Positions 3,435-56,244 of a stretch of DNA of 64,000 nucleotides are shown here, piece by piece. Location of the stretch: assembly GCA_018062285.1 (NCBI GenBank), contig JAGOSO010000001.1:32773-96772 (forward strand), given 5' to 3'. The position numbers and the translations under genes were made by a program. The notes below the pieces were generated by a model. That model ran no database searches and was not told the origin of the DNA. It saw only the letters and a program-made list of their open reading frames with translations. How positions within the stretch are numbered: position 1 is the first letter of the stretch; each line of letters opens with the position of its first letter. The stretch is from Minisyncoccota bacterium. GTDB lineage: Bacteria > Patescibacteriota > Minisyncoccia > 2-02-FULL-40-12 > GWA2-44-9.

Positions 3435-5174
3435 CTATTTCATCCTCAGGGACCAGAGGTCTCCATTGAGAATATAGGTGACCCTATCTCCCCAATTAGA
3501 CAAGCTCATGTCGGTAGCAATAGTTCTGTCATCAATCTGATTAACCTGACCATTGCTCGGCACAAAGATTTTCATCTGGCCATCTTCGACAATTGTTGCA
3601 CAGACACCCTTTGGCAAAATAGCCACGTTGAGTTCTGGACCATCGGCTTTCTCTTTTGAAATTCGATGCGACTTATAGTCGCCACCAAAAAACAAATCAA
3701 ATTTCTGATACTCGCCCGCCCGATCAAGACAGACCACAGAAACAAACCTATTGCCTGCAGAACCGGCAACAACGCGTAAGCCATCCAACTCTGCAACCCT
3801 CACGAGGATTAAAGAGCTATCGGAAAAAGGAACAACAACAAATGTGGCACCCATAGCATCCTGCACACCACACCCATTGAACCAACGAGTGGAATTGGTC
3901 ATGACACCCCAAGTCTTACCAACCGATACGATTGGCTTACCCAAGAGATGCATTTTTACTTCCGTTAAGCCATTCTCGGTAACAGCGAAGAGGCGGTTCT
4001 CATATCTAAGAACACTTCTGGCTTTCAAAGAAAGATCCAGAAGTGTTAATTTGAGACTTCCCTCTTCAACATACTGAAAAATGGTTTGCTGGTTCATTAG
4101 ATCTGCAACCAGCCATCCATCATCTACTTTCACGACCTCACAAGCACGAGAACTAGCTGTGCTAATTTGGCGTTTAGTAGCGACATCAACAAGTGCTCCA
4201 GAAGCCAACAAGACAACTCCGCAATGGAAGAGTCTAACTACTGAATCGTTTGGACGGCTCAGTAGTTTCTCAAAAACCAGAACCCCACTCTTGCTTGTTG
4301 TCACTGTTCGCATAACTTTTGCAGCCAGTGGAACAGTCAGCCCAGTATCAAATGGCGATGGTGGTCTTTGCCTTTCACCTTTTTGAAATGTCGCTTCGTA
4401 CCAACTGAGAAGCGGGGCAGGAATAGCAGAGAAATCTCGCACCGCGCGATTCAATCTCACACCAGAAGAGAAAACTGACGCTCCGGCTTTCATTCTCCCT
4501 TCAAGATTCCCCCGATCAAAACCATCGAGTGTCCCCTTGTAGGGATGCAGGCCGGTGTAGATTTGGAATGTCACAACTCCCCACGAGAACCAATCAGTCT
4601 TGTGATCAAACGTCTTGGCGTGCCAATCGCGAATTGATGGCATGATTACTGAAGCTGGCCAACGGCCAAGCGCCCAGGAATCAACGTCTACAACATGTGG
4701 CTCTGGCTCCGACTTGCGTCGTGATGCAAACCAATTCAATTCATTGGCATCAACGAGCAGAGCATTCTGACTGTGGGCAAAATCCACAACCTGACGCATG
4801 CGATCAACTAGAGTCGATGCATTCTGGTTTGTGAATCCTTCCTTCTGCCAAAATTCATTGGTGAACACTCGTGAAAGTGGATCACCATCAACATATGGCA
4901 TATAGAAGCCGACTGGGTCACCTGCCAGAGAAAAAACAAGCCCTCTGGGAGAAACGACATATGAGTGATTGAACCCAGACAGTATTTTCAACTTGTCTGG
5001 GATGCCTTTTTGTCGCATCTCTTTTGGGTCAAGATACATCTTCACAACAGAGTCACCGACTCGATAAATCGATCCTTCGCCACCAGTGGCAATATGATCG
5101 CTCGGCCGAATCGTAACCGTACCACGACCTTCAAGAACAACTTGGGTATTCCCCCTCACGATAGCTGGGGCCAT
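3435..5174 (-). CDS. protein kinase-like protein (atypical Ser/Thr kinase), third gene of a TerY-P-like triad
   Basis: Start taken at M9 (ATG 5174) because GGAGGAGG lies 7 nt upstream and it overlaps the PP2C stop. Has a glycine-rich loop TGGEGSIYRV, lysine motif SVVKMY, a catalytic-loop-like HSQNALLVDANELNW and a DxD segment VVDVDSW. The C-terminal ~300 aa are uncharacterised. Confidence 0.5.
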   Translation of the reverse strand: MAPAIVRGNTQVVLEGRGTVTIRPSDHIATGGEGSIYRVGDSVVKMYLDPKEMRQKGIPDKLKILSGFNHSYVVSPRGLVFSLAGDPVGFYMPYVDGDPLSRVFTNEFWQKEGFTNQNASTLVDRMRQVVDFAHSQNALLVDANELNWFASRRKSEPEPHVVDVDSWALGRWPASVIMPSIRDWHAKTFDHKTDWFSWGVVTFQIYTGLHPYKGTLDGFDRGNLEGRMKAGASVFSSGVRLNRAVRDFSAIPAPLLSWYEATFQKGERQRPPSPFDTGLTVPLAAKVMRTVTTSKSGVLVFEKLLSRPNDSVVRLFHCGVVLLASGALVDVATKRQISTASSRACEVVKVDDGWLVADLMNQQTIFQYVEEGSLKLTLLDLSLKARSVLRYENRLFAVTENGLTEVKMHLLGKPIVSVGKTWGVMTNSTRWFNGCGVQDAMGATFVVVPFSDSSLILVRVAELDGLRVVAGSAGNRFVSVVCLDRAGEYQKFDLFFGGDYKSHRISKEKADGPELNVAILPKGVCATIVEDGQMKIFVPSNGQVNQIDDRTIATDMSLSNWGDRVTYILNGDLWSLRMK

Positions 5175-5175
5175 C

Positions 5176-6042
5176 TCAAACCTCCTCCGCCAGATCAATG
5201 ACTTGTTCGATTCTTACAACAGCGAAAGAAATGTCATCAATTGGGCCTCGCCCAACCTGATGAAAATCTTTAATGCCTCGAATCATTCTCCGTTTAGCAA
5301 ATTCGCCCGTAGTATTCTTGAAAGCCAAGAGCGAACTCACTGCTTCTTGCCATGAAACACCTTCGACCTGAGTTACACCGTCAGAAAAAACGGCAATAAA
5401 CTCAAGTTCGGAAAGTTTTTCACGACTTAACTCCACCACAAAACCTGATCGTGCATCTTGGAATGGAATTAGGTTAATATTTTCTTCTTCTACTCTGGAC
5501 GAGCACTGCTTGATAGACATAGTGGCCTCAACTACATTGCCACCATGAATCCTATCAATGAATGTGATGGCATCTGCATCATCATACGCCGGATAGAACG
5601 GAGCGTTCTTGGTCCAATCAGAACGGAACATCATTGTTTCCCCGTTGCGATAACGCAAAGCGATAACTCCGTCACCTTGAACATGGACAAAGCCACTATT
5701 CTGGTTAATGAAAATGTAGGCGCAGGTCGAAAGCATATCGACCCTATTCAACCCCAGCATTAGCTGAGTGGATTTAAGGGTCGCCTGTTGGGCACTCGCA
5801 ATCAAGCGAGAATCCATGTCCGCTCGACCGACAAAAAGATGTGAGTCTTTGAGAGCCTGCAATGTTGCCAAGGCAAGCACTCGCGCACCAACATCGGTAT
5901 TCCCACCAGTTGAGCATCCATCTGAAACAATGGCGTAAGCTTCTGTGCCATTCGATCCAGAAATGGAATAGTCTTGGCAGGGCTTCCCACTAGAATAATG
6001 GGCCGCCCCGATGTGGAAGTAATGGTCAGCATAAAGTTTCAC
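5176..6042 (-). CDS. PP2C-family Ser/Thr protein phosphatase (TerY-P triad phosphatase)
   Basis: 288 aa. GTG start with GGAGG 6 nt upstream. PP2C/SpoIIE-like motifs: AIVSDGCSTGGNTDVG, later GDGVIAL and FAVFSDGV. Confidence 0.6.
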   Translation of the reverse strand: MKLYADHYFHIGAAHYSSGKPCQDYSISGSNGTEAYAIVSDGCSTGGNTDVGARVLALATLQALKDSHLFVGRADMDSRLIASAQQATLKSTQLMLGLNRVDMLSTCAYIFINQNSGFVHVQGDGVIALRYRNGETMMFRSDWTKNAPFYPAYDDADAITFIDRIHGGNVVEATMSIKQCSSRVEEENINLIPFQDARSGFVVELSREKLSELEFIAVFSDGVTQVEGVSWQEAVSSLLAFKNTTGEFAKRRMIRGIKDFHQVGRGPIDDISFAVVRIEQVIDLAEEV

Positions 6043-6095
6043 GATAACCCTCCGATAAAAAATGGGGATGGCGCACGTGCCATCCCCATGCGGAC

Positions 6096-6845
6096 CTAGA
6101 TGGTCGCCGCAATGTTCTGACTCGGGCCGCCAGTGCCCAGGGATTGGGACTGGCTCGAGACAGACTGCGAAACAAACTGGGCGATTTTTGCCAGCTTGCC
6201 TTTTGTTGCATCACCGGCGTCGATGTATTTCATGCCGGTTTCGGCTTCGAACTTCTCAAGATAGCCCTTGCAAGACTGAGCGTTGATACCAATGAGCACA
6301 CCAACGAGAGATTCAATCTCTTCGCCGACAAGCCCACGGTCCATCTCGTCTTTGACCATGCTGAGCGTTGCGCTTGAAGTGTTGTCGCCTCCGTCGGTAA
6401 TGACGAAAACGATACCGTTGGCCAGAAAGTCCTGGCCCATCAACCTCTTGGCGTAAGCGTTGGTAGCGCCGACCGCCGAGAAGGCAGCATCGTACAGCGG
6501 AGTCCAGCCACCAGTCCGGAAATCCGGATAGGTGTTCGGGTCAATCTCCCCCAGTGGTTTGAATCCGTGAATTTCTTCGATGCTGTTCTTGAACATATCG
6601 GAGAACAACAGGACTCGCAGGAGAAGATTGTTAGAACGGGGCGACTTCTTACACGAATCGACTGCGGCGATAACGCACCGCCGCAGCTCATCCTTGAAGC
6701 CGCTCACCGAGCCACTGACATCAACCGCGATAGTCACGAGCGTGTACTCGGTCGAGGTCAGGTGATCAATACGAACCGCCGAAAACTGGAAGCCTTGCCG
6801 GCCACCAATCTTCGAGGTTTCCGTGCCGTCATTCATTCGGGGCAT
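6096..6845 (-). CDS. von Willebrand factor A domain protein, TerY-like (TerY-P triad vWA)
   Basis: 249 aa. MIDAS motif VDVSGSVSG (DxSxS), then ...GGWTPLYDAA... and ITDGGDN, typical of TerY-type vWA proteins. GAGAGGAGAG RBS. Start is only 13 nt after the stop of the upstream PncA-like gene. Confidence 0.6.
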   Translation of the reverse strand: MPRMNDGTETSKIGGRQGFQFSAVRIDHLTSTEYTLVTIAVDVSGSVSGFKDELRRCVIAAVDSCKKSPRSNNLLLRVLLFSDMFKNSIEEIHGFKPLGEIDPNTYPDFRTGGWTPLYDAAFSAVGATNAYAKRLMGQDFLANGIVFVITDGGDNTSSATLSMVKDEMDRGLVGEEIESLVGVLIGINAQSCKGYLEKFEAETGMKYIDAGDATKGKLAKIAQFVSQSVSSQSQSLGTGGPSQNIAATI

Positions 6846-28588: not shown

Positions 28589-28702
28589 GTCTGGCGGCTA
28601 CCTACTTTCGCTGGATGAGTCCAACTATCATGGGCCTTAAGGGATTTCACTTCTGAGTTCGGGATGGGATCAGGTGGGACACCCTTAGCATAGCCACCAA
28701 GC
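28589..28702 (-). rRNA. rrf: 5S ribosomal RNA
   Basis: Minus-strand sequence GCUUGGUGGCUAUGC...GUCCCACCUGAUCCCAUCCCGAACUCAGAAGUGAAAUCCC...GCCGCCAGAC matches the conserved 5S core (CCGAACUCAGAAGUGAAA) and helix I. Confidence 0.9.
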
Positions 28703-28796
28703 TAATGCTTTTGTTTCTGGCTGAATTATATTAGTTAGAAGGAGAAAGGTCTATTGTTGCATTGAGTCATGTTGAAAGAAAAATTCAATCAAACGA

Positions 28797-31700
28797 TTAC
28801 TCAAAATTATGACTGTTTAGTAGCTCTTGGCTGAGCACCTCGCGGTGCGTACACCTAAGCCCTATCAACCTCGTAATCTACAAGGAGTCTAAGAAATCTA
28901 ATCTTGGGGCCCGTTTCGTACTTATATGCTTTCAGTACTTATCGGCACCGAACATAGCTACCCAGCGCTGCTCTTGGCAGAACAGCTGGCAGACCAGAGG
29001 TTCGTTCATCTCGGTCCTCTCGTACTAGAGACAACCCCCCTCAAATTTCAACGCCCGCACCAGATATGGACCAACCTGTCTCACGACGGTTTGAACCCAG
29101 CTCGCGTACCCTTTTAATTGGCGAACAGCCAAACCCTTGGGGCCTTCTTCAGTCCCAGGATAGGGCGAGCCGACATCGAGGTGCCGAACACTGCCGTCGC
29201 TGTGAACGCTCGGGCAGTACTAGCCTGTTATCCCCGGAGTAGCTTTTATTTGTTGATCTTCGCCCCTCCTACGAGGTAGCGTCGGTTCACTAAGTTCTGC
29301 TTTCGCATCTGCGCGACACATCCGTCTTGCAGTTAAGCTGGCTTTTGCCTTTACGCTATCGTTCCGATGTCCATCCGGAACTAGCCAACCTTGATAAACG
29401 CCTCCATTACTCTTTAGGAGGCAAGTGCCCCACTTAAACTGCCTGCCAGGCACTGTCTCGATAACACCCTAACAAGGTGTAACAAATAAAAATCTAAAAT
29501 CACTCCAACTAAATTAGTACAATAATGCACTATTTAGTATTACCAGAGTTCACTTTAGCTTTTTATGTTTCACCCTCTTAGGGTGCTACCGGTTAGAGCT
29601 ACAAATCGTTAAAATGGGTGTTTCATTGGCGGATCCATCGGGCCCGAGAGCACGACTTCAAATCCTCCCCACTACGCTACGTATAACAACTCGTAGACCA
29701 ATACCAAGCTGCAGTGAAGCTTCCGGGGTCTTTCCGTCTAGGTGCGGGTAGTCGGCATCTTTACCGACATTGCATTTTCACCGAGCTATTGGCTGAGACA
29801 GTCCCCCAGTCGTTCCGCTATTCATGCGCGTGGGAACTTACCCCACAAGGTATTTCGCTACTTTTAGACAGTTATAGTTACTGCCGTCGTTCACCGGCGC
29901 TTCGGGCCTCCCCAGTACATCTTGCGACATACCAGTTCAACCGTTAACGTTCCGGCACCGGACAAGCGTCACCCCGTATACATCGCCTTGCGGCTTAGCA
30001 CGGAGTTGTGTTTTTGATAAACAGTCGCCAGGGGTTCTTTCGCTGCGGCCCCCATCATCTTGCGATGAAAAGGGCAGGCCTTATACCGAAGGTACGGCCG
30101 CTTTTTTGCCGAGTTCCTTAGCCAATAATCACTCGTTCGCCTTAGTACACTGATACTAGTCCACCTGTGTCGGTTTTGCGGTACGTTTCCAATGTTGATA
30201 ATCTTAGAAGTTTTTCTTGGAAGCGTGCTCAGTTGAATTTCGTCTTGCGACAATTCGTAAGGCGCTCGGATGTGTCTTGCGACTGGACGTGGATTTTCCT
30301 GCGTCCCACCCTCACGCTATACCCGTTAAATCCGATTATACGGTCAACCTACAACTCTCCGTCACTCCTTCGATCAACACTGGAGGGCCAGAATATTAAC
30401 TGGCTGTCCATTATGATCGGTGGCCCTAAAGCCACCTTACACTTAGGCACGCCTAACCCTCCGATGATTGCCATCGCGGAGGAAACCTTGGACTTACGGC
30501 GGTGATGGTTTTCACATCACATGCGGTTACTCATCCCAACATTCTCCCTTCTCAACGCTCCAGCAAACTTCACAGTTCACCTTCACAGCAGTTGAGAATG
30601 CTCCCCTACCACTCGTACAAGTAAATGTACGAATCCACAATTTCGGTATTATGCTTAGCCCCTATACATTTTCGGCGCACATTGCCTCTCCGTCTTGCGA
30701 CGGAATCGAGTAGTGAGCTATTACGCACTCTTTAAAGGATGGCTGCTTCTAAGCCAACCTCCTACCTGTCTAAGGCAACGAACTTCCTTTTCACTTAGCA
30801 TAAATTTTGGGACCTTAATTTGTGATCTGGGCTGTTTCCCTTGCGTACACGAAGCTTAGCCCTCGCGTACTCACTGGCATAGATTTCATGAAGGTATTCG
30901 GAGTTTATTTGGTAGGCCTACCATTGCTGGCACGGCTAACCAATTAGTGCTCTACCCCCTTCATTACTCCATACCGCTGTCCCTAAAGACATTTCGGGGA
31001 GAACCAGCTATTACCAAGCTCGATAAGCTTTTCACTTCTAACCACAAGTCATCCGATGACATTGAGCGATCAAACGGTTCGGGCCTCCACTTATCTTTCG
31101 ATAAGCTTCACCCTGCTCATGGTTAGCTCGCCTGGCTTCGGGTCTTACCTATACCGCATAAAGACATTTCACCTATAAGCCCTAAAGCTTGTAGGTGAAA
31201 GTTCTTAAACGCGCTATTAACACTCGGTTTCCCTGTCCATACGTCCCAGTGGAACTTATAGTGCGGTGTAAGTAAACTCGTCGGGTCATTCTTCAATAGG
31301 CACACCGTTACCCGACGTCTTGCGACGGCAGGCTCCGGCTCTTTGTAGGCACACGGTTTCAGTTTCTATTTCACTCCCCTCGCCGGGGTTCTTTTCGCCT
31401 TTCCCTCACGGTACTGGTTCACTATCGATCACGAATAGTATTTAGCCTTATCCAGTAGTATGGACAAATTCACCCCGGACATTCTTATCCTGGGCTACTC
31501 AGGTAACAATACAGAAGTTCGTTTGGTTTCGGATACAGGACTGTCACCTGCTATGGTCGGCTGTTCCAAGGCCGTTCTCCTACCGCACGAATTTTTAACT
31601 TCTTATGAAGTTTTAACTCCACGCACGATGTGTCTGCGCGAAGTTAAAATTTCAAGTGTACTATCCCTATTACCCCACCCTCATTTTAGTAAACTAATTT

Positions 31701-31982
31701 GAAAATGGTTTAGGCTGTGCCGCTTTCGCTCGCCGCTACTCACGGTATCTAATTCTATTTATTTTCCTTTGGGTACTGAGATGTTTCACTTCCCCAAGTA
31801 TGCTTCCTGCTTGCGCAGAATAATCATGGTTCACATGATTGGGTTGCCCCATTCGGACATCTCCGGGTCATAGCTTGCTCGACAGCTCACCGAAGCTTTT
31901 CGCAGTCACGCAACGTCCTTCATAGCCTATTCGTGTCAAGGCATCCTCCGTGCGCCCTTTAATGTGGTCATTTTGCTTGACC
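28797..31982 (-). rRNA. rrl: 23S ribosomal RNA (about 3.2 kb; includes an AT-rich roughly 110-nt expansion segment near 29465-29580)
   Basis: The 5-prime end GGUCAAGCAAAAUGACCACAUUAAAGGGCGCACGGAGGAUGCCUUGAC is at about 31982. Domain V sequences are present (GGAUAACAGGCUAGUACUGCCCGAGCGUUCACAGCGACGGCAGUGUUCGGCACCUCGAUGUCGGCUC). The 3-prime helix-1 partner is near 28797-28815. End coordinates are approximate to about 15 nt. Confidence 0.85.
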
Positions 31983-32287
31983 TTTGAGTAATCGCTTGAT
32001 TGATGTTTCCTTTATCTTCCAAAGTTCTAAGGAAATAAAACTTGGAAGAACTAACTAACTTAATGCAATATCTTTTAGATACTTTCTTACCCTCTAACTA
32101 ATATAATTTTTAAGTTGCATTCCATTAGCAGCCAGCGAAGAGTTTCCTTGAAACCTATCGTCGAACGCCAATCTATTTTTTAAAAAAATTACCGCTTTCT
32201 AGCGGCAGACCTAAGCGCATCAATATGCTAGGTTTTTAGCCGCGTTTACCTCTTAGTTGTAACGTAGTTAACATAGAATATTTCAGT

Positions 32288-32320
32288 AATGTTAGTATAG
32301 CAAACTAGCCCTCATAGAGT
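32288..32320 (-). promoter_or_regulatory. candidate promoter of the 23S-5S unit (TTGACT-N18-TATACT)
   Basis: Minus-strand sequence ggctaTTGACTctatgagggctagtttgcTATACTaac, about 320 nt upstream of the mature 23S 5-prime end. There is no 16S rRNA or tRNA between the promoter and the 23S. Confidence 0.4.
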
Positions 32321-32329
32321 CAATAGCCC

Positions 32330-33499
32330 CTAGGGGGCTGGGTCAAAAGCCTCTAAGGAATGGGCTAATTTGTCCACTTCTTCCCAACCAGCCTTAGAAT
32401 CAAAGTTGTATCTCGCAGGCAAAGCAATTACATATTTTGAATTCTGCCCCAAAATACTTGGCGGGATTGGTGCTGCCCCAACCGATATGTTGTCATCGGA
32501 AACTTTGTCATTAGTTACTCTTCTCCATTCATCCAATGTAAAAATCATTACTGGCAAATCTTCCCTCATGCTAGATGTCGCCCACTGAGGATGACGGAGT
32601 ATTATCTTCGGACCACGAATCGTCTTATTGTTATCATTCAAATATGCACCCTCCCACTGACTATTTAAAACCGTGTATCCCTTCCAAGCACTGGTTAATG
32701 GAATTGAAAATCCATACTGATTATTTTTATAGATAATAGAACTCGCTGAATCTTTTGATTTAAATGTGGTCAACATCTGATCAAAAATTTTGTCTTCTTG
32801 CTCAGGAGTCATAACACCTGGCAAAGCTAATATTTTTTTATAGTCCGTAATCAATGGTGTTCTCTCGGGATTGAAAGGTCTCTTGATGACAAGGGTGTGA
32901 TTAGCATCTATTGAAAAATAATATGTGTCGACACCACAGCCTTCTGCCCCCATCCTGAATCTGTAGCCACTCAAACCACCAGATGAATATGTATCGACGA
33001 AACCAGGCGACAATTTAAACTGACCATTTTCAAAAATATCTTTGGGGTAAAAATAATCTTTGGCCACACTTGAGCCCATGTCTCCATTAAACATTTTCCA
33101 TGCAGAATTAAAATCAACCACTTGAGTTAATGGCTGACTATCCCCTTTCATGTCGCAAGTATCTGAGTGTTGATATGGAACACCATGAGTAATTCTCGCA
33201 CCATCAACATTCTCCTGAATCAAAAAATTATTAGGATACTTAAACTCAAACCCATACTGTGTATTCACATACGTCTTCCAGCCTGCCGTCTCATCAGCCC
33301 CTAATGTTGGTGTTGGAGTTGCCACAACTACCGTTTGTTGTTTCTGCCAATACCAGATACCGACATAGGCACCAGCGCCGAGTAAAATTAAAATGCCTAA
33401 AGTGATGGCAAACTTTTTATTTAGGAAATGACGATGAGGATTAGAGTAAGTTGCAAGTGGGACTAAGGGCTGTTCTGCTTGAGGGGTTATTGGGTCCAT
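32330..33499 (-). CDS. N-terminally membrane-anchored secreted protein with repeated WKTYxNxxYGFEFKYP-motif domains (389 aa)
   Basis: Tandem paralog of 33487..34533. Shared N-terminus HRHFLNKKFAITLGILILLGAGAYVGIWYWQKQQ, a Pro/Thr linker, and repeats GWKTYVNTQYGFEFKYPNNF plus a degenerate second copy. Confidence 0.5.
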   Translation of the reverse strand: MDPITPQAEQPLVPLATYSNPHRHFLNKKFAITLGILILLGAGAYVGIWYWQKQQTVVVATPTPTLGADETAGWKTYVNTQYGFEFKYPNNFLIQENVDGARITHGVPYQHSDTCDMKGDSQPLTQVVDFNSAWKMFNGDMGSSVAKDYFYPKDIFENGQFKLSPGFVDTYSSGGLSGYRFRMGAEGCGVDTYYFSIDANHTLVIKRPFNPERTPLITDYKKILALPGVMTPEQEDKIFDQMLTTFKSKDSASSIIYKNNQYGFSIPLTSAWKGYTVLNSQWEGAYLNDNNKTIRGPKIILRHPQWATSSMREDLPVMIFTLDEWRRVTNDKVSDDNISVGAAPIPPSILGQNSKYVIALPARYNFDSKAGWEEVDKLAHSLEAFDPAP

Positions 33500-46309: not shown

Positions 46310-46837
46310 TTAGATTGATTTGCGTTGGAACATCTTACGAACACCCTTTTTAGGTTCCGCAATTTTCTTTCCAAGCTCAGTTTTAACGGCTGGTTTGCCT
46401 TCGTTCTTCATCTTTGGCTGGTCAGCTTCGGTGTGATCGTGGGTATGACCTTCATGCTTATGGTCTTCTTTTGTTTCTTTCTTTTCGCCTTTTAATCCTG
46501 GAACTTTTTCAGCCAACACTAAATGAATATGGCTGGTTTTCTTTTGGATTTCACCAACAGCACCCATAGCTTTAGGCTGATAGCGTTTTAATTTAACACC
46601 TTCATCAACATAGAATTCTTTAATATAGAGATTGCTTGCAACCATGTTGAAGTTGTTCTCGGCATTAGCAATAGCAGAACGAATAAGTTTCGAAACTGGT
46701 AAAGCTGGTCGGCGAATAACGAACTCAAGCTGTTGCAAAGCTTTCAATGCACCCTTGCCTCTGACAAGGTTGACGATAAGTCTGACCTTACGAGGGGCTT
46801 GGCGTAGACTATTTAATTGTGCGGATACAGTTGCCAT
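46310..46837 (-). CDS. rplV: 50S ribosomal protein L22 with Lys/His/Glu-rich C-terminal extension
   Basis: L22 core, then a roughly 60-aa charged tail (KKETKEDHKHEGHTHDHTEADQPK...). Confidence 0.9.
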   Translation of the reverse strand: MATVSAQLNSLRQAPRKVRLIVNLVRGKGALKALQQLEFVIRRPALPVSKLIRSAIANAENNFNMVASNLYIKEFYVDEGVKLKRYQPKAMGAVGEIQKKTSHIHLVLAEKVPGLKGEKKETKEDHKHEGHTHDHTEADQPKMKNEGKPAVKTELGKKIAEPKKGVRKMFQRKSI

Positions 46838-46846
46838 ATTAAATTA

Positions 46847-47203
46847 TTATTTCTTAGCTGGTGTTTTAGCATCAGCGGCTGGGGCTTTTGCGGCCTGTGC
46901 AGCTTCAATTTCTTTTTGTTTTGCAGCAGCTTCCATTTCCTTCTGCATCTTGCCTCCGTGGCGACTAAACTTCCTGGTAGGTGCAAATTCGCCCAATTTA
47001 TGACCAACCATATCTTCAGTGACAAATACTGGAAGGTGAACGCGTCCGTTGTGAACACCAAAAGTATAGCCAATCATTTCTGGAGATATAGAACATGCGC
47101 GAGACCAAGTTTTGATGATGGTCTTGTCGCCTGCTTTCAAGTTGGCAATCTTCTTAAGAAGACGCTCATCTCGATATGGACCTTTTTTGAGTGATCGTGA
47201 CAT
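46847..47203 (-). CDS. rpsS: 30S ribosomal protein S19 with Ala/Lys-rich C-terminal tail
   Basis: S19 core ...[18 protein letters not shown]..., then [34 protein letters not shown]. Confidence 0.9.
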
Positions 47204-48046: not shown

Positions 48047-48457
48047 TTAGGCTTTGGCAGAATTAATTGAATCGCCCTCAGCTAAAGTAACAATCGCCTT
48101 TCGGAAACCAGCTTTGGTTCCAATGTGTCGGCCGACAGTTCTCTTTTTGGAAGGCATGTTGATCATATTAACTGCTACAACTTTAACCTTATATCTGTTT
48201 TCGATAGCCTTCTTAACTTCTGGCTTGTTGGCATCGCGAGTAACCTTGAACATATATTGGTTCATGGTTTCTAAGCGACTAGCCTTTTCGGAAACATAAG
48301 GATGCAAAATTGCTGAAACTTTTGAAATAATTAAATTAGAAGTATTGGCGACAACTGGAGCAGCCTCAACTTTAACTTCTTTGGTGGCCTTAACCTTAGC
48401 AACTGTTTTGCTCTTGGTGGCAGCCTTTTTAGTTTTGAAAATATTAAGTGCGCTCAT
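48047..48457 (-). CDS. rplW: 50S ribosomal protein L23 (with Lys/Ala-rich N-terminal extension)
   Basis: 136 aa; the L23 core follows a basic N-terminal segment. Confidence 0.85.
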   Translation of the reverse strand: MSALNIFKTKKAATKSKTVAKVKATKEVKVEAAPVVANTSNLIISKVSAILHPYVSEKASRLETMNQYMFKVTRDANKPEVKKAIENRYKVKVVAVNMINMPSKKRTVGRHIGTKAGFRKAIVTLAEGDSINSAKA

Positions 48458-49970: not shown

Positions 49971-50309
49971 TTACATTTTTACTTCGATATCGACACCAGC
50001 TGGGAGATTCAAGTTCATCAGAGCATCGATAATCTTTGGACTAGGCGATGTGATGTCTATCAATCTCTTGTGGGTACGCATTTCGAACTGCTCGCGGGAA
50101 TTCTTATCGATGAAGGGCGATCGGTTGACCGTGTACTTCTGAATTTCCGTTGGCAATGGGACTGGGCCAATTGGCCTGCCACCAAAGCGTTCAATCGTTT
50201 CCACAATTTGCTTAGCGGACTTATCGATAATCTTATTATCGTAAGCCTTAAGCTTAATGCGAATACGCTGCTCGGTTGATTCTGGTTTTTTTGATGCTTT
50301 GGTTGCCAT
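49971..50309 (-). CDS. rpsJ: 30S ribosomal protein S10
   Basis: ...[10 protein letters not shown]...PLPT...R...[18 protein letters not shown] is canonical S10. Confidence 0.95.
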
Positions 50310-50361: not shown

Positions 50362-51561
50362 TTACTTGATGATTTTAACTACCGCACCTGCACCGACGGT
50401 CTTACCTCCTTCGCGGATAGCGAAACGAAGTTTCTCGTCCATGGCAACTGGGGCAATCAATTTAACATCCAAAGTGATGGTATCACCAGGCATAACCATT
50501 TCTGTTCCTTCTGGAAGAATGATTTCGCCAGTAACATCGGTAGTTCGGAAGTAGAATTGAGGTTTGTAACCTTTCAAGAATGGAGTGTGTCGTCCACCTT
50601 CTTCTTTGGTCAAGACATAAATCTCAGCTGAGAAGTCAGTGTGTGGAGTGATCGAACCTGGCTTGGCCAAAACCTGACCACGTTCAACATCTTCTTTCTT
50701 GGTACCGCGGAGCAAGATACCAGCATTGTCGCCAGCCTCACCTGAGTCCAACTGCTTGTTGAACATTTCGATACCAGTGACAACAGTCTTTACTGTTGGC
50801 TTCAAACCAACGATTTCAACTTCATCGTTAAGTTTAAGGGTACCGCGTTCGATACGACCAGTAACAACAGTGCCACGACCTTCGATAGCGAAGATATCTT
50901 CGATAGGCATCAAGAATGGCTTATCGGTATCGCGAACTGGATCTGGAATGAAACTATCAAGAGCATTCACCAATTCAATGAAAGGCTTGGTAGCATCGTC
51001 TTTTGCGTTTGAAGCAAGAGCTTTGGTTGCTGAACCACGGATAATAGGAGTGGTGTCGCCTGGGAAACCATTCTTAGTCAATAACTCACGAATTTCAGCT
51101 TCAACCAAATCAGCTAATTCAGCATCTTCAACCATGTCCATCTTGTTCATGAAGACAACGATATAAGGAACGCCGACCTGCTTAGCGAGCAAGATGTGTT
51201 CACGAGTTTGAGGCATAGGACCATCTGGAGCAGAAACAACCAAGATTGCACCGTCCATCTGGGCAGCACCGGTGATCATGTTCTTGATGTAGTCGGCGTG
51301 ACCTGGGCAGTCAACGTGAGCATAGTGACGCTTTGGGGTTTCGTATTCTGAGTGGTGAGTAGAGATTGTAATACCTCTGGCTCGTTCTTCAGGAGCCTTG
51401 TCGATTGAATCAACACCTTCTACGCGTGAACCATAGCTTTCGTCCTTGTACAAATCCAAAACATGCAAAATAGCCGCCGTAGTGGTGGTTTTTCCATGGT
51501 CAACGTGGCCAATAGTGCCGACGTTTACGTGTGGTTTATTTCTTTCAAATTTTCCTGCCAT
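50362..51561 (-). CDS. tuf: elongation factor Tu
   Basis: 399 aa: [21 protein letters not shown]. Confidence 0.97.
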
Positions 51562-51685
51562 TCGGGTATATAGCTTATAGGTTTTTACGTATCGGTTGAA
51601 TTGGAAGCCGAGACGTAAGAGTCCAGAAGCTATCTGTTAATGTGTATATCTATTTTAGCTGAAAACCAAATGAGAGTCAAGCCTT

Positions 51686-51970
51686 TTAGATACCGAGTCC
51701 TTTTTCCTCTTCTTCGATCTGTTCCTTGAGGGCCAAGATGTCCTTATTTATCCTCTCCAACAGCTCCATATCACTACTCTGATTTACCGCTGGTGACACA
51801 ACTGGCTGGGCCACAAAACGAGGCTCTTTTACTGACGAATCCCCTTCGGTCTTTTCTAACAAATCCTTGTAGGACTTATAGTCTACGACCACATACGATG
51901 GTTCTCCGTTATCCATAATCAAAACCGCTGTCGAATGCTTGAGCATCTTCTTTAATTCAGAGATATTCAT
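51686..51970 (-). CDS. Phd/YefM-like antitoxin-fold protein (94 aa) with acidic coiled-coil C-terminus
   Basis: N-terminus MNISELKKMLKHSTAVLIMDNGEPSYVVVDYKSYKDLLE fits the YefM/Phd pattern (...I..nG.p..V..s.eeYe.L.E). Part of an insertion between fusA and tuf. Confidence 0.45.
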   Translation of the reverse strand: MNISELKKMLKHSTAVLIMDNGEPSYVVVDYKSYKDLLEKTEGDSSVKEPRFVAQPVVSPAVNQSSDMELLERINKDILALKEQIEEEEKGLGI

Positions 51971-51995
51971 ATTGCCCCCATACTAACGCAATCCA

Positions 51996-52049
51996 TAAAA
52001 AAGAAAAGCCCTGACAAGGATGTGTTGTTGAACACATCCTTGTCAGGGC
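51996..52049 (-). terminator. strong terminator of the 52064..52936 gene (19-bp perfect stem GCCCTGACAAGGATGTGTT/AACACATCCTTGTCAGGGC plus T-run)
   Basis: Read directly from the sequence. On the minus strand it is followed by TTTTCTTTTTTAT. Confidence 0.7.
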
Positions 52050-52063
52050 AAAGAACGACCGAC

Positions 52064-52936
52064 TTACGATCCCGTCTTTCGGGTCTCCTGCCTCTTCCAG
52101 AATTCATCTGCCCGGAATCTAAAATGTTCCTTCCAGGTTCGACTGGGAACAATGCCATGGTCGTACGCAACCGACTCAAGATTTTCCCGCAGGATCTGGC
52201 AGGCGGGCGAGCGATATCGCCCCATATCTTCTCTCGCAGACTCGAGAATACCCTGAATGGCTTTCTGTAATTCGATGTGTTGCTTCTCTTCTGTCTTTAT
52301 TGATTCCAACATCGACAGGACGTCGATGTGGTTAAAAATATTTTCAAGACTAGAGAATGTCAAAAAATTCTTCTGGGTCAAGACGAAAAGCGGGCCGTCT
52401 TTCCCAATCACTCGCTTCAAAGACCACTTCTTGGCCAAATTTCCATGAATCTTGACCGGGAACCTGAAACGGCTGTTGGAAAAAGCGAGGAGAGAAAAAT
52501 CGGCACCTTCCAAAAAAGCTCGTGTTTTCTGAAGCCTCAACCATTCACCAAGAGAGATCTCTTTTATCTTGTTGTCATATCCAATCCTGTACGTGCTGGT
52601 CGGACCAAACCACTTCCAGAACAAGTCATCCGAAAACCCACTCATAGAATTAATGAACACAATGGCGCTCATAAAGGAAATCGCCACCCAAGTCGATTCA
52701 TAGTGCGCAGACAAGAAGGTGGATTTGGGGATTACCCAATTTGTGATGACCCACCACCACACTTTCACAAACAGTAACCCGGCCACAACCATAATAGAGG
52801 TGTAGGAAAAACGATTCCAATTTTTAAGGTCACGGAAAAATGTTGCGATCACAAACCCGGGGTAACCACAGAGCCCGAAGAAAAAACTCATAAGGCTCCA
52901 AAAAACGAGAACGAAAAAATACAACATAGCACACAC
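52064..52936 (-). CDS. hypothetical integral membrane protein (290 aa: N-terminal about 4 TM helices plus about 170-aa cytoplasmic domain), own promoter and terminator
   Basis: GAGGAG RBS. Promoter TTGATT-N17-TATAAT (-35 53069-53074, -10 53046-53051) right after the fusA terminator. It is inserted between fusA and tuf. Confidence 0.45.
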   Translation of the reverse strand: MCAMLYFFVLVFWSLMSFFFGLCGYPGFVIATFFRDLKNWNRFSYTSIMVVAGLLFVKVWWWVITNWVIPKSTFLSAHYESTWVAISFMSAIVFINSMSGFSDDLFWKWFGPTSTYRIGYDNKIKEISLGEWLRLQKTRAFLEGADFSLLAFSNSRFRFPVKIHGNLAKKWSLKRVIGKDGPLFVLTQKNFLTFSSLENIFNHIDVLSMLESIKTEEKQHIELQKAIQGILESAREDMGRYRSPACQILRENLESVAYDHGIVPSRTWKEHFRFRADEFWKRQETRKTGS

Positions 52937-53091
52937 TCCTCAGCGATAGGCCCAAAGTCCTACCGGTGAACGAAGCCGCTCATGGCCATTTCGCAGAATT
53001 GCGAACTTTCCATGCGGAGCCTCTTTGTTAACGAACAACGACAATATTATACAATACTAATTTATAAAAATCAATATTAAGATGCCCCCAC

Positions 53092-53120
53092 CAAAAAACA
53101 CCCGTATGGGTGTTTTTTGG
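53092..53120 (-). terminator. fusA terminator (AAAAAACACCCATACGGGTGTTTTTTTGG on minus)
   Basis: Hairpin plus T-run immediately downstream of the fusA stop. Confidence 0.6.
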
Positions 53121-53151
53121 TGTCGAGAATGACGAGAGGCGGAATGAGCGA

Positions 53152-55254
53152 TTATTTCTTGCCTTCAATAATCTGCTGAGCGACGTTTGATGGAACTGGT
53201 TCGTAGTGATCGAATTCCATGGTGTAGTTACCACGACCTTCAGTTAATGAGCGGAGGGAAGTTGAGTAACCAAACATTGAAGATAATGGAACACGAGCAT
53301 CGATAACTTTCAAACTCAATGATGATCGATCAGCAATGTTAATAATCTGACCACGGCGTCCAGCAATATCACCGGTTGTTTCACCCATCGATTTTTCAGG
53401 AATGATAACTTCAACTTTCATGATAGGTTCAAGTAAAACTGGTTTGGCGCGCTTGGAAGATTCTTGTAATGCAGTTGAGCCAGCCATTTTGAAAGCGATT
53501 TCAGAAGAGTCGACTTCGTGGTAAGAACCATCGTACAAAGTAACTTTGATGTCTACCATTGGGAAGCCGGCGACAACGCCACGCTCAAGAGCTTCTTGAA
53601 TACCCTTTTCAGTTGGTTTCACGAATTCTTCAGGAATGGCACCGCCTTTAATAGCGTTAACGAATTCATAACCAGCACCACGTTCCAATGGTTCAACTTT
53701 CAACCAAACGTGACCGTACTGACCACGACCGCCGGATTGTTTAATATATTTACCTTCAGCTTGAGCTTCTTGAGTAATAGTTTCTTTATAAGCAACCTGT
53801 GGGCGACCGACGTTGGCTTCAACAGAGAATTCACGGCGCATGCGGTCAACCAAAACGTCTAAGTGCAATTCGCCCATACCAGATATAATGGTTTCGCCGG
53901 TTTCAGCATCGGTGCGAATACGGAAAGTTGGGTCTTCATCAGAAAGTTTGCGCAAAGCCATGCCCATCTTTTCTTGGTCGGCTTTTGTCTTAGGTTCGAT
54001 ACGCAAAGAGATAACTGGTTCTGGCGCATCGATACCCAACAAAGTAACTGGGTGCTCAGGATCGCAAAGAGTATCGCCTGTTTTAGTAGCTTTCAAACCA
54101 ACAGCGGCAGCAATACCACCAGCGTCGATTTCTTTGATTTCTTCACGTTCGTTAGCGTGCAAACGAACGATACGTCCAATACGTTCTTGCTGACCAGTAC
54201 GAGTATTTAAAACATAGGAACCGGCTTGCAACATACCAGAATAGACACGGAAGAAAGTAAGCTGACCAACATAAGGGTCGGTTGCGACTTTGAAAGCCAA
54301 AGCACGGAAAGGTTCTGAATCAGATGGCTTAGCGATTATTTCTTCACCAGCTTCACCCTTACCGATTGTTGGAGGAACATCTATTGGAGAAGGTAAGAAG
54401 AAGGCAACAGCGTCAAGAACGAGCTGAACACCTTTATTCTTCAAAGCAGAACCGCAATACACAGGGTAAATTTTACCAGCGATAACAGCAGAGCGAAGAA
54501 TAGTTTTTAATTTTTCAACTGGAATTTCTTTACCTTCAAGATAGTCGTTCATGGCGACTTCATCATTCTCGACAATCTTTTCTACCAAAATAGCGCGCTG
54601 TTTTTCAGCCTCTTCTTTTAATTCAGCAGGAATTGGACCACGAACAATCTTTTCACCTTTCACACCTTCAAACTGAACAAAATCCATCTCCATCAAATCA
54701 ACGACACCAGTAAACTGGTCTTCGTGGCCATTTGGAATCTGCATCTTTACAGCATTCGGTGTAAGACGTTCGAGAATCGATTGGTAAGAACGTTCAAATG
54801 ATGCGCCCAAGCGGTCTAATTTATTAATAAAGCAAACACGAGGAACATTGTAATCATCAGCGTAGCGCCAGTTGGTTTCAGATTGAGGTTCGACGCCGGC
54901 AACACCGTCGAAAACGACAACAGCACCATCAAGAACACGCATGGAGCGCTTAACCTCGATGGTAAAGTCGATGTGTCCTGGGGTATCGATTAAGTTGATC
55001 TTGATCTTTTTGGTGAGATCTCCAGCGGCGTTTGTTGGAGTCCAAAAAGTAGTTGTAGCGGCGGCTGTAATAGTAATACCACGTTCACGTTCCTGTTCCA
55101 TCCAGTCCATGACAGTATCCCCTTCGTGAACTTCACCGATTTTGTGACTAACACCAGTATAGAACAAAATGCGCTCGGAAACGGTCGTTTTTCCAGCGTC
55201 GATGTGGGCGATGACTCCAATATTTCTGACCTTTTCGATAGGGTATTCTCTCAC
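53152..55254 (-). CDS. fusA: elongation factor G
   Basis: 700 aa: [17 protein letters not shown], and the remaining G-domain motifs and domains II to V. Confidence 0.97.
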
Positions 55255-55333: not shown

Positions 55334-55810
55334 TTATTTATTGCCCCAAGCAAAGTGAGCAAAGGCTTTGTTGGCGTCGGCCATGCGGTGCATGTCGAGC
55401 TTCTTCTTGACGGCGTTTCCAGTATTATTAAAAGCATTCAATAATTCTTCGGCGAACTTTTCTTCCATTGGGCGGCCTTTAGCATTACGAGCAGCCTCAA
55501 CTAACCAGCGGACAGCTAAAGCGTTTTTGCGTTCTGGGCGAACTTCAATAGGAACCTGATAGTTAGCGCCACCGATACGGCGGGATTTCAATTCCATGTT
55601 TGGAGCAGCATTAGTGATAGCCGTTTCCAAAACTTCTAAAACAGGCTTCTTGGCTTTTTCGCCAGCGATTTCTAGAGCTTTGTAAACGATGCGAGTAGCA
55701 GTAGATTTGTGACCAGAATACATAATTCGGTTGATGATTTTAGCAACAACAAGACTCTGGTATTGGAGGTCTGGTTCTACGTGTGTTTTTCGTTTAACGG
55801 GTCTGCGCAT
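55334..55810 (-). CDS. rpsG: 30S ribosomal protein S7
   Basis: 158 aa, canonical S7. Confidence 0.95.
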   Translation of the reverse strand: MRRPVKRKTHVEPDLQYQSLVVAKIINRIMYSGHKSTATRIVYKALEIAGEKAKKPVLEVLETAITNAAPNMELKSRRIGGANYQVPIEVRPERKNALAVRWLVEAARNAKGRPMEEKFAEELLNAFNNTGNAVKKKLDMHRMADANKAFAHFAWGNK

Positions 55811-55833: not shown

Positions 55834-56244
55834 TTATTTACTTTTCTTAGCACCGTACTTAGAGCGCTGCTGCTTTCGGCCTTCAACGGCACCAGCATCA
55901 AGCACGCCACGAACGATATGATAACGAACACCTGGAAGATCCTTTACGCGACCACCACGGATAACAACAACTGAGTGCTCTTGTAAGTTATGACCAATAC
56001 CAGGGATATAGGCGGTGACTTCGTTGCCATTGGTTAAACGGACACGAGCGATTTTACGTAAAGCTGAGTTAGGTTTCTTAGGGGTCATTGTACGAACCTG
56101 AATGCAAACACCACGCTTAAATGAAGCTGGATAATAGACTGGCTTATTCTTAAGAGAGTTCATGCCGAACGTTAAAGCAGGCGACTTTGTTTTCGCTTTA
56201 GCTATTTTACGTGGCTTTTTTAATAGTTGTCTGAATGTTGGCAT
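55834..56244 (-). CDS. rpsL: 30S ribosomal protein S12
   Basis: 136 aa: ...[50 protein letters not shown]... TAGGAGG RBS. Confidence 0.95.

Follow-up and report, generated by a model that had tools for sequence, protein, structure and literature searches.

Do the genes that separate fusA from tuf in a groundwater bacterium of the candidate phyla radiation (CPR) form one mobile module, or do they belong to separate units? The question is raised by a 64,000-nucleotide stretch of contig JAGOSO010000001.1 from a Minisyncoccota bacterium (assembly GCA_018062285.1), which was analysed as a whole and is referred to below as the window. Here an interval of 1.47 kb between the genes for elongation factors EF-G (fusA) and EF-Tu (tuf) holds two open reading frames (ORFs): ORF290, which encodes a membrane protein, and ORF94, which encodes a small acidic protein of 94 aa. 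An earlier note, made from the letters of the window, had read the pair as a single mobile two-gene insertion, a toxin-antitoxin (TA) or abortive-infection-like module in which a membrane effector is paired with a YefM-like protein. No literature description of a fusA-ORF290-ORF94-tuf locus was found. CPR bacteria are uncultivated, and their translation systems are unusual and reduced.

We conclude that the interval is made up of two independent units and is not one mobile module. Among 52 distinct related loci, most of which were found through ORF94 itself, ORF94 occupies the same position every time, and a gene of the ORF290 family is present in 17 and absent from 35. The single mobile insertion is contradicted by this distribution. 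The account that we favour, and consider probable, is that the interval is a composite of a clade-resident ORF94 and an optional, leader-controlled ORF290 cassette, with functional roles that we infer for each. The genes of the locus, all on the minus strand, follow the order rpsL, rpsG, fusA, ORF290, ORF94, tuf and rpsJ in the ORF list, and its features are as follows.

55834-56244, minus strand: rpsL (ORF list)
55334-55810, minus strand: rpsG (ORF list)
53152-55254, minus strand: fusA (EF-G, 700 aa), the upstream boundary (ORF list; about 70-98% identity to fusA of related loci)
53089-53122, minus strand: hairpin 3' of the fusA stop, likely an intrinsic terminator, with a 15-bp stem whose 3' arm is the U-run (RNA fold)
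53046-53074, minus strand: promoter of the ORF290 cassette, TTGATT-17-TATAAT (pattern scan and conservation in relatives)
52927-53036, minus strand: structured RNA of the 5' untranslated region (5'UTR) of the ORF290 family (leader alignment and covariance model)
52064-52927 (287 aa, ATG at 52927, probable) or 52064-52936 (290 aa, GTG at 52936), minus strand: ORF290, with 3-4 N-terminal transmembrane (TM) helices, then a predicted cytoplasmic domain (beta-rich subdomain and helical bundle)
51998-52049 (stem-loop 52008-52049), minus strand: intrinsic terminator of the ORF290 cassette, with a perfect 19-bp stem, a loop of 4 and a U-run (pattern scan and fold)
51686-51970, minus strand: ORF94, small acidic protein of 94 aa (synteny, alignment and substitution rates)
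51652-51680, minus strand: tuf promoter, TTGACT-17-TAAAAT (pattern scan; conserved in most related loci)
51570-51633, minus strand: conserved hairpin of the tuf 5' leader, base ATAGCTTCTGGA.../...AAGCTAT, loop CUUCCAAUUCAA (fold and covariation)
50362-51561, minus strand: tuf (EF-Tu, 399 aa), the downstream boundary (ORF list)
49971-50309, minus strand: rpsJ (ORF list)

ORF94 and its place beside tuf

Exact-protein look-ups, GTDB species genomes and metagenome contigs supplied loci containing ORF94, and removal of duplicates left the 52 distinct loci, which are of the Paceibacteria/Yanofskybacteria type. The contigs come from the groundwater sites Hainich and Rifle. fusA lies upstream of ORF94 on the same strand in all 42 loci with an informative upstream flank, and ORF94 begins within 100 nt of fusA in 18 of these, several of which have a TAATG stop/start overlap or a gap of 2-18 nt. 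On the other side, tuf follows ORF94 in 46 of 46 informative loci, at a distance of 61-296 nt in 44; in the two exceptions, an rve-type integrase (locus L031, 5298-6365) or a HicB-HicA pair (locus L033, 5296-5778) lies between ORF94 and tuf. The fusA-ORF94-tuf order is kept even where the family member shares just 29-31% identity with the ORF94 of the window and fusA 69-73%. Among 5.8 billion proteins searched, 181 homologues of ORF94 were found, and those that carry names belong to Yanofskybacteria, Paceibacterota or Parcubacteria. A profile of the family found 199 representatives at E<=1e-3 among 1.84 billion, all of them small and with the same full-length architecture. We conclude that ORF94, specific to this clade, resides in its str/tuf region and is passed on vertically; the ancestral order there is rpsL-rpsG-fusA-ORF94-tuf-rpsJ. 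The comparison of fusA-tuf junctions in relatives, which the earlier note had proposed as a check, finds the 94-aa gene in every related locus examined and so goes against an insertion of this gene.

Measured against the closest relative, L001, the ratio of nonsynonymous to synonymous substitution rates (dN/dS) is 0.04 for ORF94 and 0.16 for ORF290; both are real genes under purifying selection. The GC content of the ORF290/ORF94 region equals that of its flanks, and a recent foreign origin of the region was rejected on this ground. A phage origin was likewise rejected: a profile search found no ORF94-family copies in viral contigs, and no matches to the leader of ORF290 were found in them. 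No toxin gene adjoins ORF94 in any of the 52 loci, and a Doc/Fic partner within the 64-kb window was rejected after a search for the Fic motif there found none.

An alignment of 45 family members and an AlphaFold2 (AF2) model outline the architecture of ORF94. Residues 1-42 are a conserved N-domain with an alpha-beta-beta-alpha core, modelled as a helix at 3-11, strands at 13-20 and 23-30 and a helix at 31-39, with predicted local distance difference test (pLDDT) scores of 65-70. Residues 43-62 are a variable, disordered linker, and residues 63-91 are a near-invariant amphipathic C-terminal helix, ELLERINKDILALKEQIEEEEK, modelled with pLDDT scores of 91-95. The core of this helix, RLNxEILALK, is kept even by the most distant members. 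With 12 K/R vs 18 D/E the protein is acidic, and it is unchanged in loci from which the ORF290 family is absent.

The earlier note had assigned the N-terminus of ORF94 to the Phd/YefM antitoxin fold, a claim that holds in part. A weak profile likeness is consistently present. ORF94 matches PF02604 at E 1e-3 and 19.1 bits (cut-off 29.8) over profile positions 14-51 of 74, and a sub-threshold match to PF02604 is found in 45 of 45 family members, with a best E of 1.2e-5. ORF94 also scores 15.6 bits against TIGR01552, below the threshold of 20.8, and matches PHROG 2268, an 'antitoxin' family, at E 3.3e-7. In contrast, the fold was not recovered: neither fold searches nor profile-to-PDB sequence searches returned a YefM fold for ORF94, and alignment with hhalign of the N-domain profile to approximate YefM and Phd sequences gave the expected register, at a score that was not significant. 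In YefM, the N-terminal domain includes beta1 and an alpha1-turn-alpha2 motif, and DNA is read by Asn5-Ser7 and Arg10-Gln11 (PMC7544224). In ORF94, about 12 residues precede the strand that aligns with YefM beta2, and the AF2 model places one short helix before the beta-hairpin. Because the alignment starts at profile position 14 and few residues precede the beta2 strand, the DNA-reading part of YefM (beta1 and the helix with Arg10/Gln11) is missing from ORF94. ORF94 thus scores below the curated threshold, lacks a complete N-domain and has no adjacent cognate toxin of the Doc, YoeB or RelE/ParE type. Judged by these comparisons, the N-domain is related to the Phd/YefM core remotely and in truncated form, without being a member of the family, and ORF94 is best called a toxin-less, truncated Phd/YefM variant in a new, fixed context.

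The ORF290 cassette, its leader RNA and the variable slot

The ORF290 unit is complete in itself, a cassette that comprises a promoter, 5'UTR, coding sequence and strong terminator of its own, and the signals that the earlier note had listed around it are present. The fusA terminator is a 15-bp hairpin at 53089-53122 (-31.6 kcal/mol, z -6.7, none of 200 shuffles as stable), which the pattern scan overlooked because the T-run sits within the maximal stem. Promoter-like matches as a class show no enrichment over shuffles in the window (9 observed vs 9.8 expected); nonetheless, the TTGATT-17-TATAAT promoter at 53074-53046 is near-identical in L001, and a CTTGATTTTTT...TGGTATGAT promoter lies 5' of the leader in most other ORF290-family loci. 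The leader that follows is about 110 nt long, with a putative transcription start at about 53039. The perfect 19-bp stem of the cassette terminator (52008-52049) is also as described, with a fold z of -9.8 that no shuffle of 200 matched, and a comparable hairpin with a T-run is found 3' of every ORF290-family gene examined. ORF94 starts 37 nt past the cassette terminator, and there is no recognisable promoter between them in the window.

The likely start of ORF290 is the ATG at 52927, which gives a protein of 287 aa: this codon is preceded at 8 nt by the Shine-Dalgarno (SD) sequence GAGGAG, and it is also the start in the homologues P0002 and P0003 and in the alignment with L001. The GenBank call, KBC81_00485, is 262 aa long and starts 25 codons too late relative to the homologues and the SD sequence (window 52852-52936); this start would delete the first TM helix. 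As the earlier note had stated, the product is a membrane protein without a recognisable family. Hydropathy resolves 3 clear segments in its membrane part, where the AF2 model places 4 helices; its C-terminal domain, predicted to be cytoplasmic and rich in Arg and Trp, comprises about 190 aa (about 170-190 aa across the family) with no known fold.

ORF290 as a single query found three matching proteins. Other loci have ORFs in the fusA-ORF94 gap whose C-terminal domains relate them to ORF290, and a profile of the resulting family matches 29 proteins. In a typical member, a single TM helix precedes the motif WLKGSRxxY, a beta-rich part that contains FRRRSAIYG...W, then GLxVExALxLINTYPSLQAMLDRIAELEK and RYRS; the branch formed by the window and L001 has a membrane part of 3-4 helices in place of the one TM helix. 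Searches of the family against Pfam, NCBIfam, PADLOC, PHROGs and PDB sequences gave scattered chance-level matches only (PADLOC gave none for ORF94), and a weak H3TH/HhH-like match appeared in 7 of 27 members. The family is fast-evolving and TM-anchored, without recognisable relatives. A hidden Markov model scan placed it in the fusA-ORF94 gap in each of its 17 loci, and look-ups from the distant members P0136, P0141 and P0144 each led to a position between fusA and ORF94/tuf. Locus L001 holds two paralogues. Because loci with and without the family interleave when they are ordered by fusA identity, repeated loss or gain is suggested. Some loci carry altered versions: a full leader 5' of an 82-aa soluble protein in L055 (143-500), a variant without leader and TM segment in L040 (3467-4099), and in L061 (3893-4687) a gene split into two ORFs, likely by a frameshift or as a pseudogene.

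The 5'UTR of the ORF290 family is conserved far more than the protein, such that the window and L019, whose proteins are ~22% identical, differ at just one position of a 20-mer. The leader is about 105-110 nt long, and the motif starts 7-10 nt past the -10 box. An alignment of 16 leaders gives 24 consensus pairs in two domains. In domain 1, GCUCCGGAYGG pairs with CCRUUCGCAGC to form a long helix around a variable hairpin with an AAUUC-type loop; in domain 2, CACCGCUGGG pairs with CCCAGAGCUGG, and the 3' strand extends into the SD sequence GGAGG. Compensatory changes are found in 12 of the 24 pairs among the 16 leaders, and double changes in 18 of 24 in a model-fitted alignment of 22 matches. 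The proportion of paired cells is 96.6%, compared to 87.0% in shuffles (0 of 500 reach the observed value) and 31-48% when the partners are slid, and large insertions are tolerated in loops only (L037, L063). The covariance model built for the leader, R1, found 21 matches at E<=2e-14 in 419 kb, each ending at an ORF290-family start codon and one of them 5' of the truncated 82-aa variant in L055; its one match in the window is at 52927-53036 (88.7 bits, E 7e-24). Rfam 15 gave no match at E<=1 on the region and none meaningful at E<=10 on the leader alone. These results provide good support for the leader as a new candidate conserved, structured cis-regulatory RNA. An N-terminal coding extension or an upstream ORF was rejected as its explanation, since the stems co-vary and a coding function is unlikely because in-frame TAG codons occur in several loci and the variation is not at third positions. 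An alternative pairing that would sequester the SD sequence (CUCCGG with CUGGAG) was checked by eye and is not conserved in window-type leaders.

The 5' tail of the leader resembles a BoxA element. In the window its 11-mer, GTTCGTTAACA, agrees at 10 of 11 positions with the consensus GYTCTTTAANA, which was defined in gamma-proteobacteria (PMC5725501); 19 of 20 leaders match 8-11 positions of the same gamma-proteobacterial consensus. The window contains no excess of such 11-mers (11 matches, 9.2 expected), and no convincing BoxA was found in the 360 nt upstream of the window 23S gene. The BoxA assignment is a lead only, because a BoxA was not confirmed upstream of that gene.

The spacer between fusA and ORF94 is a variable slot, which holds the ORF290 cassette in about a third of the genomes. 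The earlier note's expectation that TA and other mobile modules land in the fusA-tuf junction is true of the relatives, whose intervals contain HicAB, HepT/MNT, transposases and restriction-modification (RM) genes. Besides the integrase and HicB/HicA genes on the tuf side of ORF94 mentioned above, these include a type IIG Eco57I-like RM enzyme (L014, 1734-4415), MNT and HepT (L019, 3980-4764) and IS200-like Y1 transposases (L021, L040, L048 and L061); XRE and ArsR regulators with helix-turn-helix domains lie in the interval of L010, and unknown genes in those of L035, L041 and L046. In these genomes, mobile and defence genes have landed in the fusA-tuf interval repeatedly. An imperfect inverted repeat of ~150 nt, CCAGCCACATACCCCC...GGGGGTATGTGGCTGG, also occurs in the fusA-ORF94 gap of L011 (~3720-3860), L013 (~4340-4480) and L021 (~5960-6130), and a similar piece is present in L049 (~520-570). 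It has no Rfam match at gathering score and could be an element like a miniature inverted-repeat transposable element or a structured RNA.

Other observations concern the translation genes of the window. The ribosomal proteins uL22 (175 aa, 46310-46837), uS19 (118 aa, 46847-47203) and uL23 (136 aa, 48047-48457), all encoded on the minus strand, have long charged or Ala/Lys-rich terminal extensions relative to typical bacterial lengths. The 23S and 5S rRNA genes lie at 28589-31965 on the minus strand; the rRNA operon appears to be unlinked here, because no 16S gene was detected within the 64-kb window.

Possible roles of the two units

In the composite account, ORF94 is probably a toxin-less adaptor tied to translation factors. 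As a derivative of Phd/YefM, it would have lost the N-terminal DNA-reading part and the toxin and kept a small core for dimerisation and, on a flexible linker, a C-terminal helix that binds a partner. It would then be a dimeric adaptor, whose invariant helix docks on a very conserved, co-expressed partner. ORF290 is unlikely to be the partner that constrains this helix, because window and L001 share 52% identity in ORF290 (98% in fusA) but 100% in the helix. The translation apparatus (EF-G, EF-Tu or the ribosome) is the most plausible partner, and our best guess, because of the coupling of ORF94 to fusA and its position before tuf. ORF290 is probably a conditionally expressed membrane protein, for which the leader would set translation and/or transcript elongation: domain 2 has its end within the SD region, and the tail that resembles BoxA may bring in NusB/S10.

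Several points weigh against this account. The functions of both proteins and of the RNA rest on inference from sequence. In the window, ORF94 lies behind a strong terminator without a recognisable promoter; its expression there needs either read-through, which could come from a BoxA-dependent mechanism, or an unrecognised promoter. The BoxA consensus is gamma-proteobacterial, and no clear BoxA lies 5' of the window 23S gene. The placement between fusA and tuf holds for the loci found, most of which were collected through ORF94 itself, and does not amount to presence in all members of the clade. Finally, that the ORF290 family and ORF94 stay tightly adjacent over deep divergence could reflect a functional link.

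Were ORF94 instead a transcription factor, a Phd/YefM-type dimer bound at the tuf promoter or at its own would tune expression of EF-Tu and the S10 operon, which we regard as unlikely. Phd/YefM N-domains are DNA-binding dimers (PMC7544224, PMC1802561), and a suitable site would be at hand: the tuf promoter starts 6 nt past the ORF94 stop, and the strong promoter GGGGTTGACT-N17-TAAAAT and the initial transcribed region are conserved at this place, directly 3' of ORF94, in most related loci. However, beta1 and the Arg10/Gln11 helix of YefM are absent from ORF94, the protein is acidic, and no conserved palindrome is evident around the promoter. Moreover, every face of the C-terminal helix is near-invariant, which points to a protein partner. 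As separate observations, the tuf promoter (51652-51680) and the 23S rRNA promoter (32270-32330), both on the minus strand, share the form GG(G)G-N-TTGACT-N17-TA(A/T)A(A/C)T, and the first transcribed bases of tuf, TGCRCRYTTTAAY, are conserved and weakly BoxA-like (8-9 of 11 positions).

A far-reaching extension of the composite account seems to us rather doubtful. It would make ORF94 an antitoxin-derived translation accessory factor of one CPR clade, a dimer with its helices on EF-Tu, EF-G or the ribosome that recruits in the manner of a stalk or shields EF-Tu from Doc-type kinases, and would make the ORF290 leader a new riboswitch or Nus-dependent RNA class that allows read-through of the terminator into ORF94 and tuf.

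It is distinctly improbable that ORF94 and the ORF290 family are partners of a kind other than TA, with ORF94 tethered or sequestered at the membrane in the manner of an anti-sigma system, or with either protein binding RAUUC loops, such that the state of the envelope would be linked to elongation-factor expression. Consistent with this idea, the ORF290 family is found only immediately 5' of ORF94, across lineages with 73-98% identity in fusA, its cytoplasmic domain has the Arg/Trp-rich character and the weak HhH/H3TH-like match noted above (FRRRSAIYG and RYRS among its motifs), and hairpins with RAUUC loops occur in both flanking 5'UTRs. The hairpin of the tuf leader has a fold z of -4.5 and shows covariation in 6 leaders, and the exact 12-mer at its base is present in >20 loci. 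An RAUUC hairpin loop is found in 25 of 44 tuf leaders, compared to 4.5% of shuffles, and RAUUC also stands in the P2 loop of the ORF290-family leader. A trans-acting factor shared by the RAUUC loops of the tuf and ORF290 leaders is possible; the likeness may also be chance or shared ancestry, because the motif is 5 nt long and the loci are related. Against the partnership, the shared location may be one ancient insertion that was inherited and then lost repeatedly, ORF94 does not change where the ORF290 family is missing, the evolutionary rates of the two are mismatched, and ORF94 is acidic and without an RNA-binding signature. The loci whose tuf leaders carry the conserved hairpin (window 51562-51650) are L001, L005, L006, L009, L011-L013, L026-L028, L034, L035, L040, L043, L045, L049, L051, L055, L058 and L061.

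We give very little credence to ORF94 as an orphan antitoxin that confers immunity against toxins encoded elsewhere or delivered from outside, such as Doc-type kinases, whose phosphorylation of EF-Tu would account for a position beside tuf. A category of orphan antitoxins is recognised (PMC7354431), and Phd uses its C-terminal segment to neutralise Doc, whose target is EF-Tu (PMC9207808, PMC10728895); ORF94 has a Phd/YefM-like core and a conserved C-terminal helix. In contrast, no Fic/Doc motif is present in the window or adjacent to ORF94 in any locus, immunity genes are not typically fixed throughout a clade or coupled in translation to fusA, and the helix has no detectable likeness to the Doc-binding segment of Phd.

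The TA or abortive-infection-like pair inserted at fusA-tuf, with which the earlier note had explained the locus, is similarly remote and largely rejected: the antitoxin-like profile matches of ORF94, the occurrence of ORF290-family genes solely beside it, genuine TA modules in the same slot of relatives and the fast evolution of ORF290 speak for it, whereas ORF94 stands without the ORF290 family in about two thirds of the loci under strong constraint (dN/dS 0.04) and is often coupled to fusA, the effector comes first and is separated from ORF94 by a strong terminator and separate regulation, the putative neutralising helix is invariant where ORF290 is hypervariable, and there is no PADLOC or known toxin family match, no adjacent toxin, no compositional anomaly and no viral copy. 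Thus the two genes show neither the obligate co-occurrence nor the co-transcription nor the mobile, patchy distribution of a two-gene module.

What remains are moderately interesting leads: a clade-fixed small protein, a new RNA motif and an integration hot spot. ORF94 stands as a concrete candidate for a factor in translation or regulation that is specific to a lineage of CPR bacteria and, if the composite account is true, as an antitoxin fold that was recruited to a housekeeping role. The 5'UTR of ORF290 is an undescribed structured RNA with a BoxA-like start that is directly testable in vitro. For annotation, the locus implies that an antitoxin-like gene beside a membrane protein is not readable as a defence module without comparative context.

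Comparison with known systems

ORF94 shares with Phd/YefM antitoxins its small size and acidity, an N-terminal beta-hairpin and helix in register with beta2-beta3-alpha of YefM, and a disordered middle followed by a C-terminal helix that, in the model, resembles a partner site that folds on binding. It differs in scoring below the curated thresholds, in lacking beta1, the DNA-reading helix and a cognate toxin, and in its lack of mobility, its fixed place between fusA and tuf and its frequent coupling to fusA. Moreover, its C-terminal helix is near-invariant over the clade instead of co-varying with a toxin.

The leader of ORF290 can be compared with two kinds of regulatory 5'UTR. Like the BoxA/Nus-regulated 5'UTRs of rrn leaders, suhB and rpsJ (PMC5725501), the ORF290 transcript carries a BoxA-like 11-mer at its 5' end, followed by hairpins, and it lies in a neighbourhood of ribosomal-protein and elongation-factor genes that includes rpsJ (NusE); unlike them, position 5 is usually G in the ORF290 leaders, and the window 23S gene has no matching BoxA. 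With riboswitches and ribosomal-protein leaders it shares a multi-helix 5'UTR with covariation, conserved unpaired nucleotides and loops of variable length, an exclusive association with one gene family and a 3' helix that reaches the SD sequence. In contrast to these, it lies outside the families of Rfam 15, and no obvious alternative pairing of the terminator/antiterminator kind was found.

The interval as a whole invites comparison with integration hot spots at tRNA and tmRNA genes and housekeeping junctions. The occupant of the window, the ORF290 cassette, differs from the usual cargo of such sites in that it is not a mobile element, has no flanking repeats or integrase and matches its flanks in composition. 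Across the related genomes, the fusA-ORF94-tuf interval nevertheless resembles these sites, in that its cargo differs from one genome to the next.

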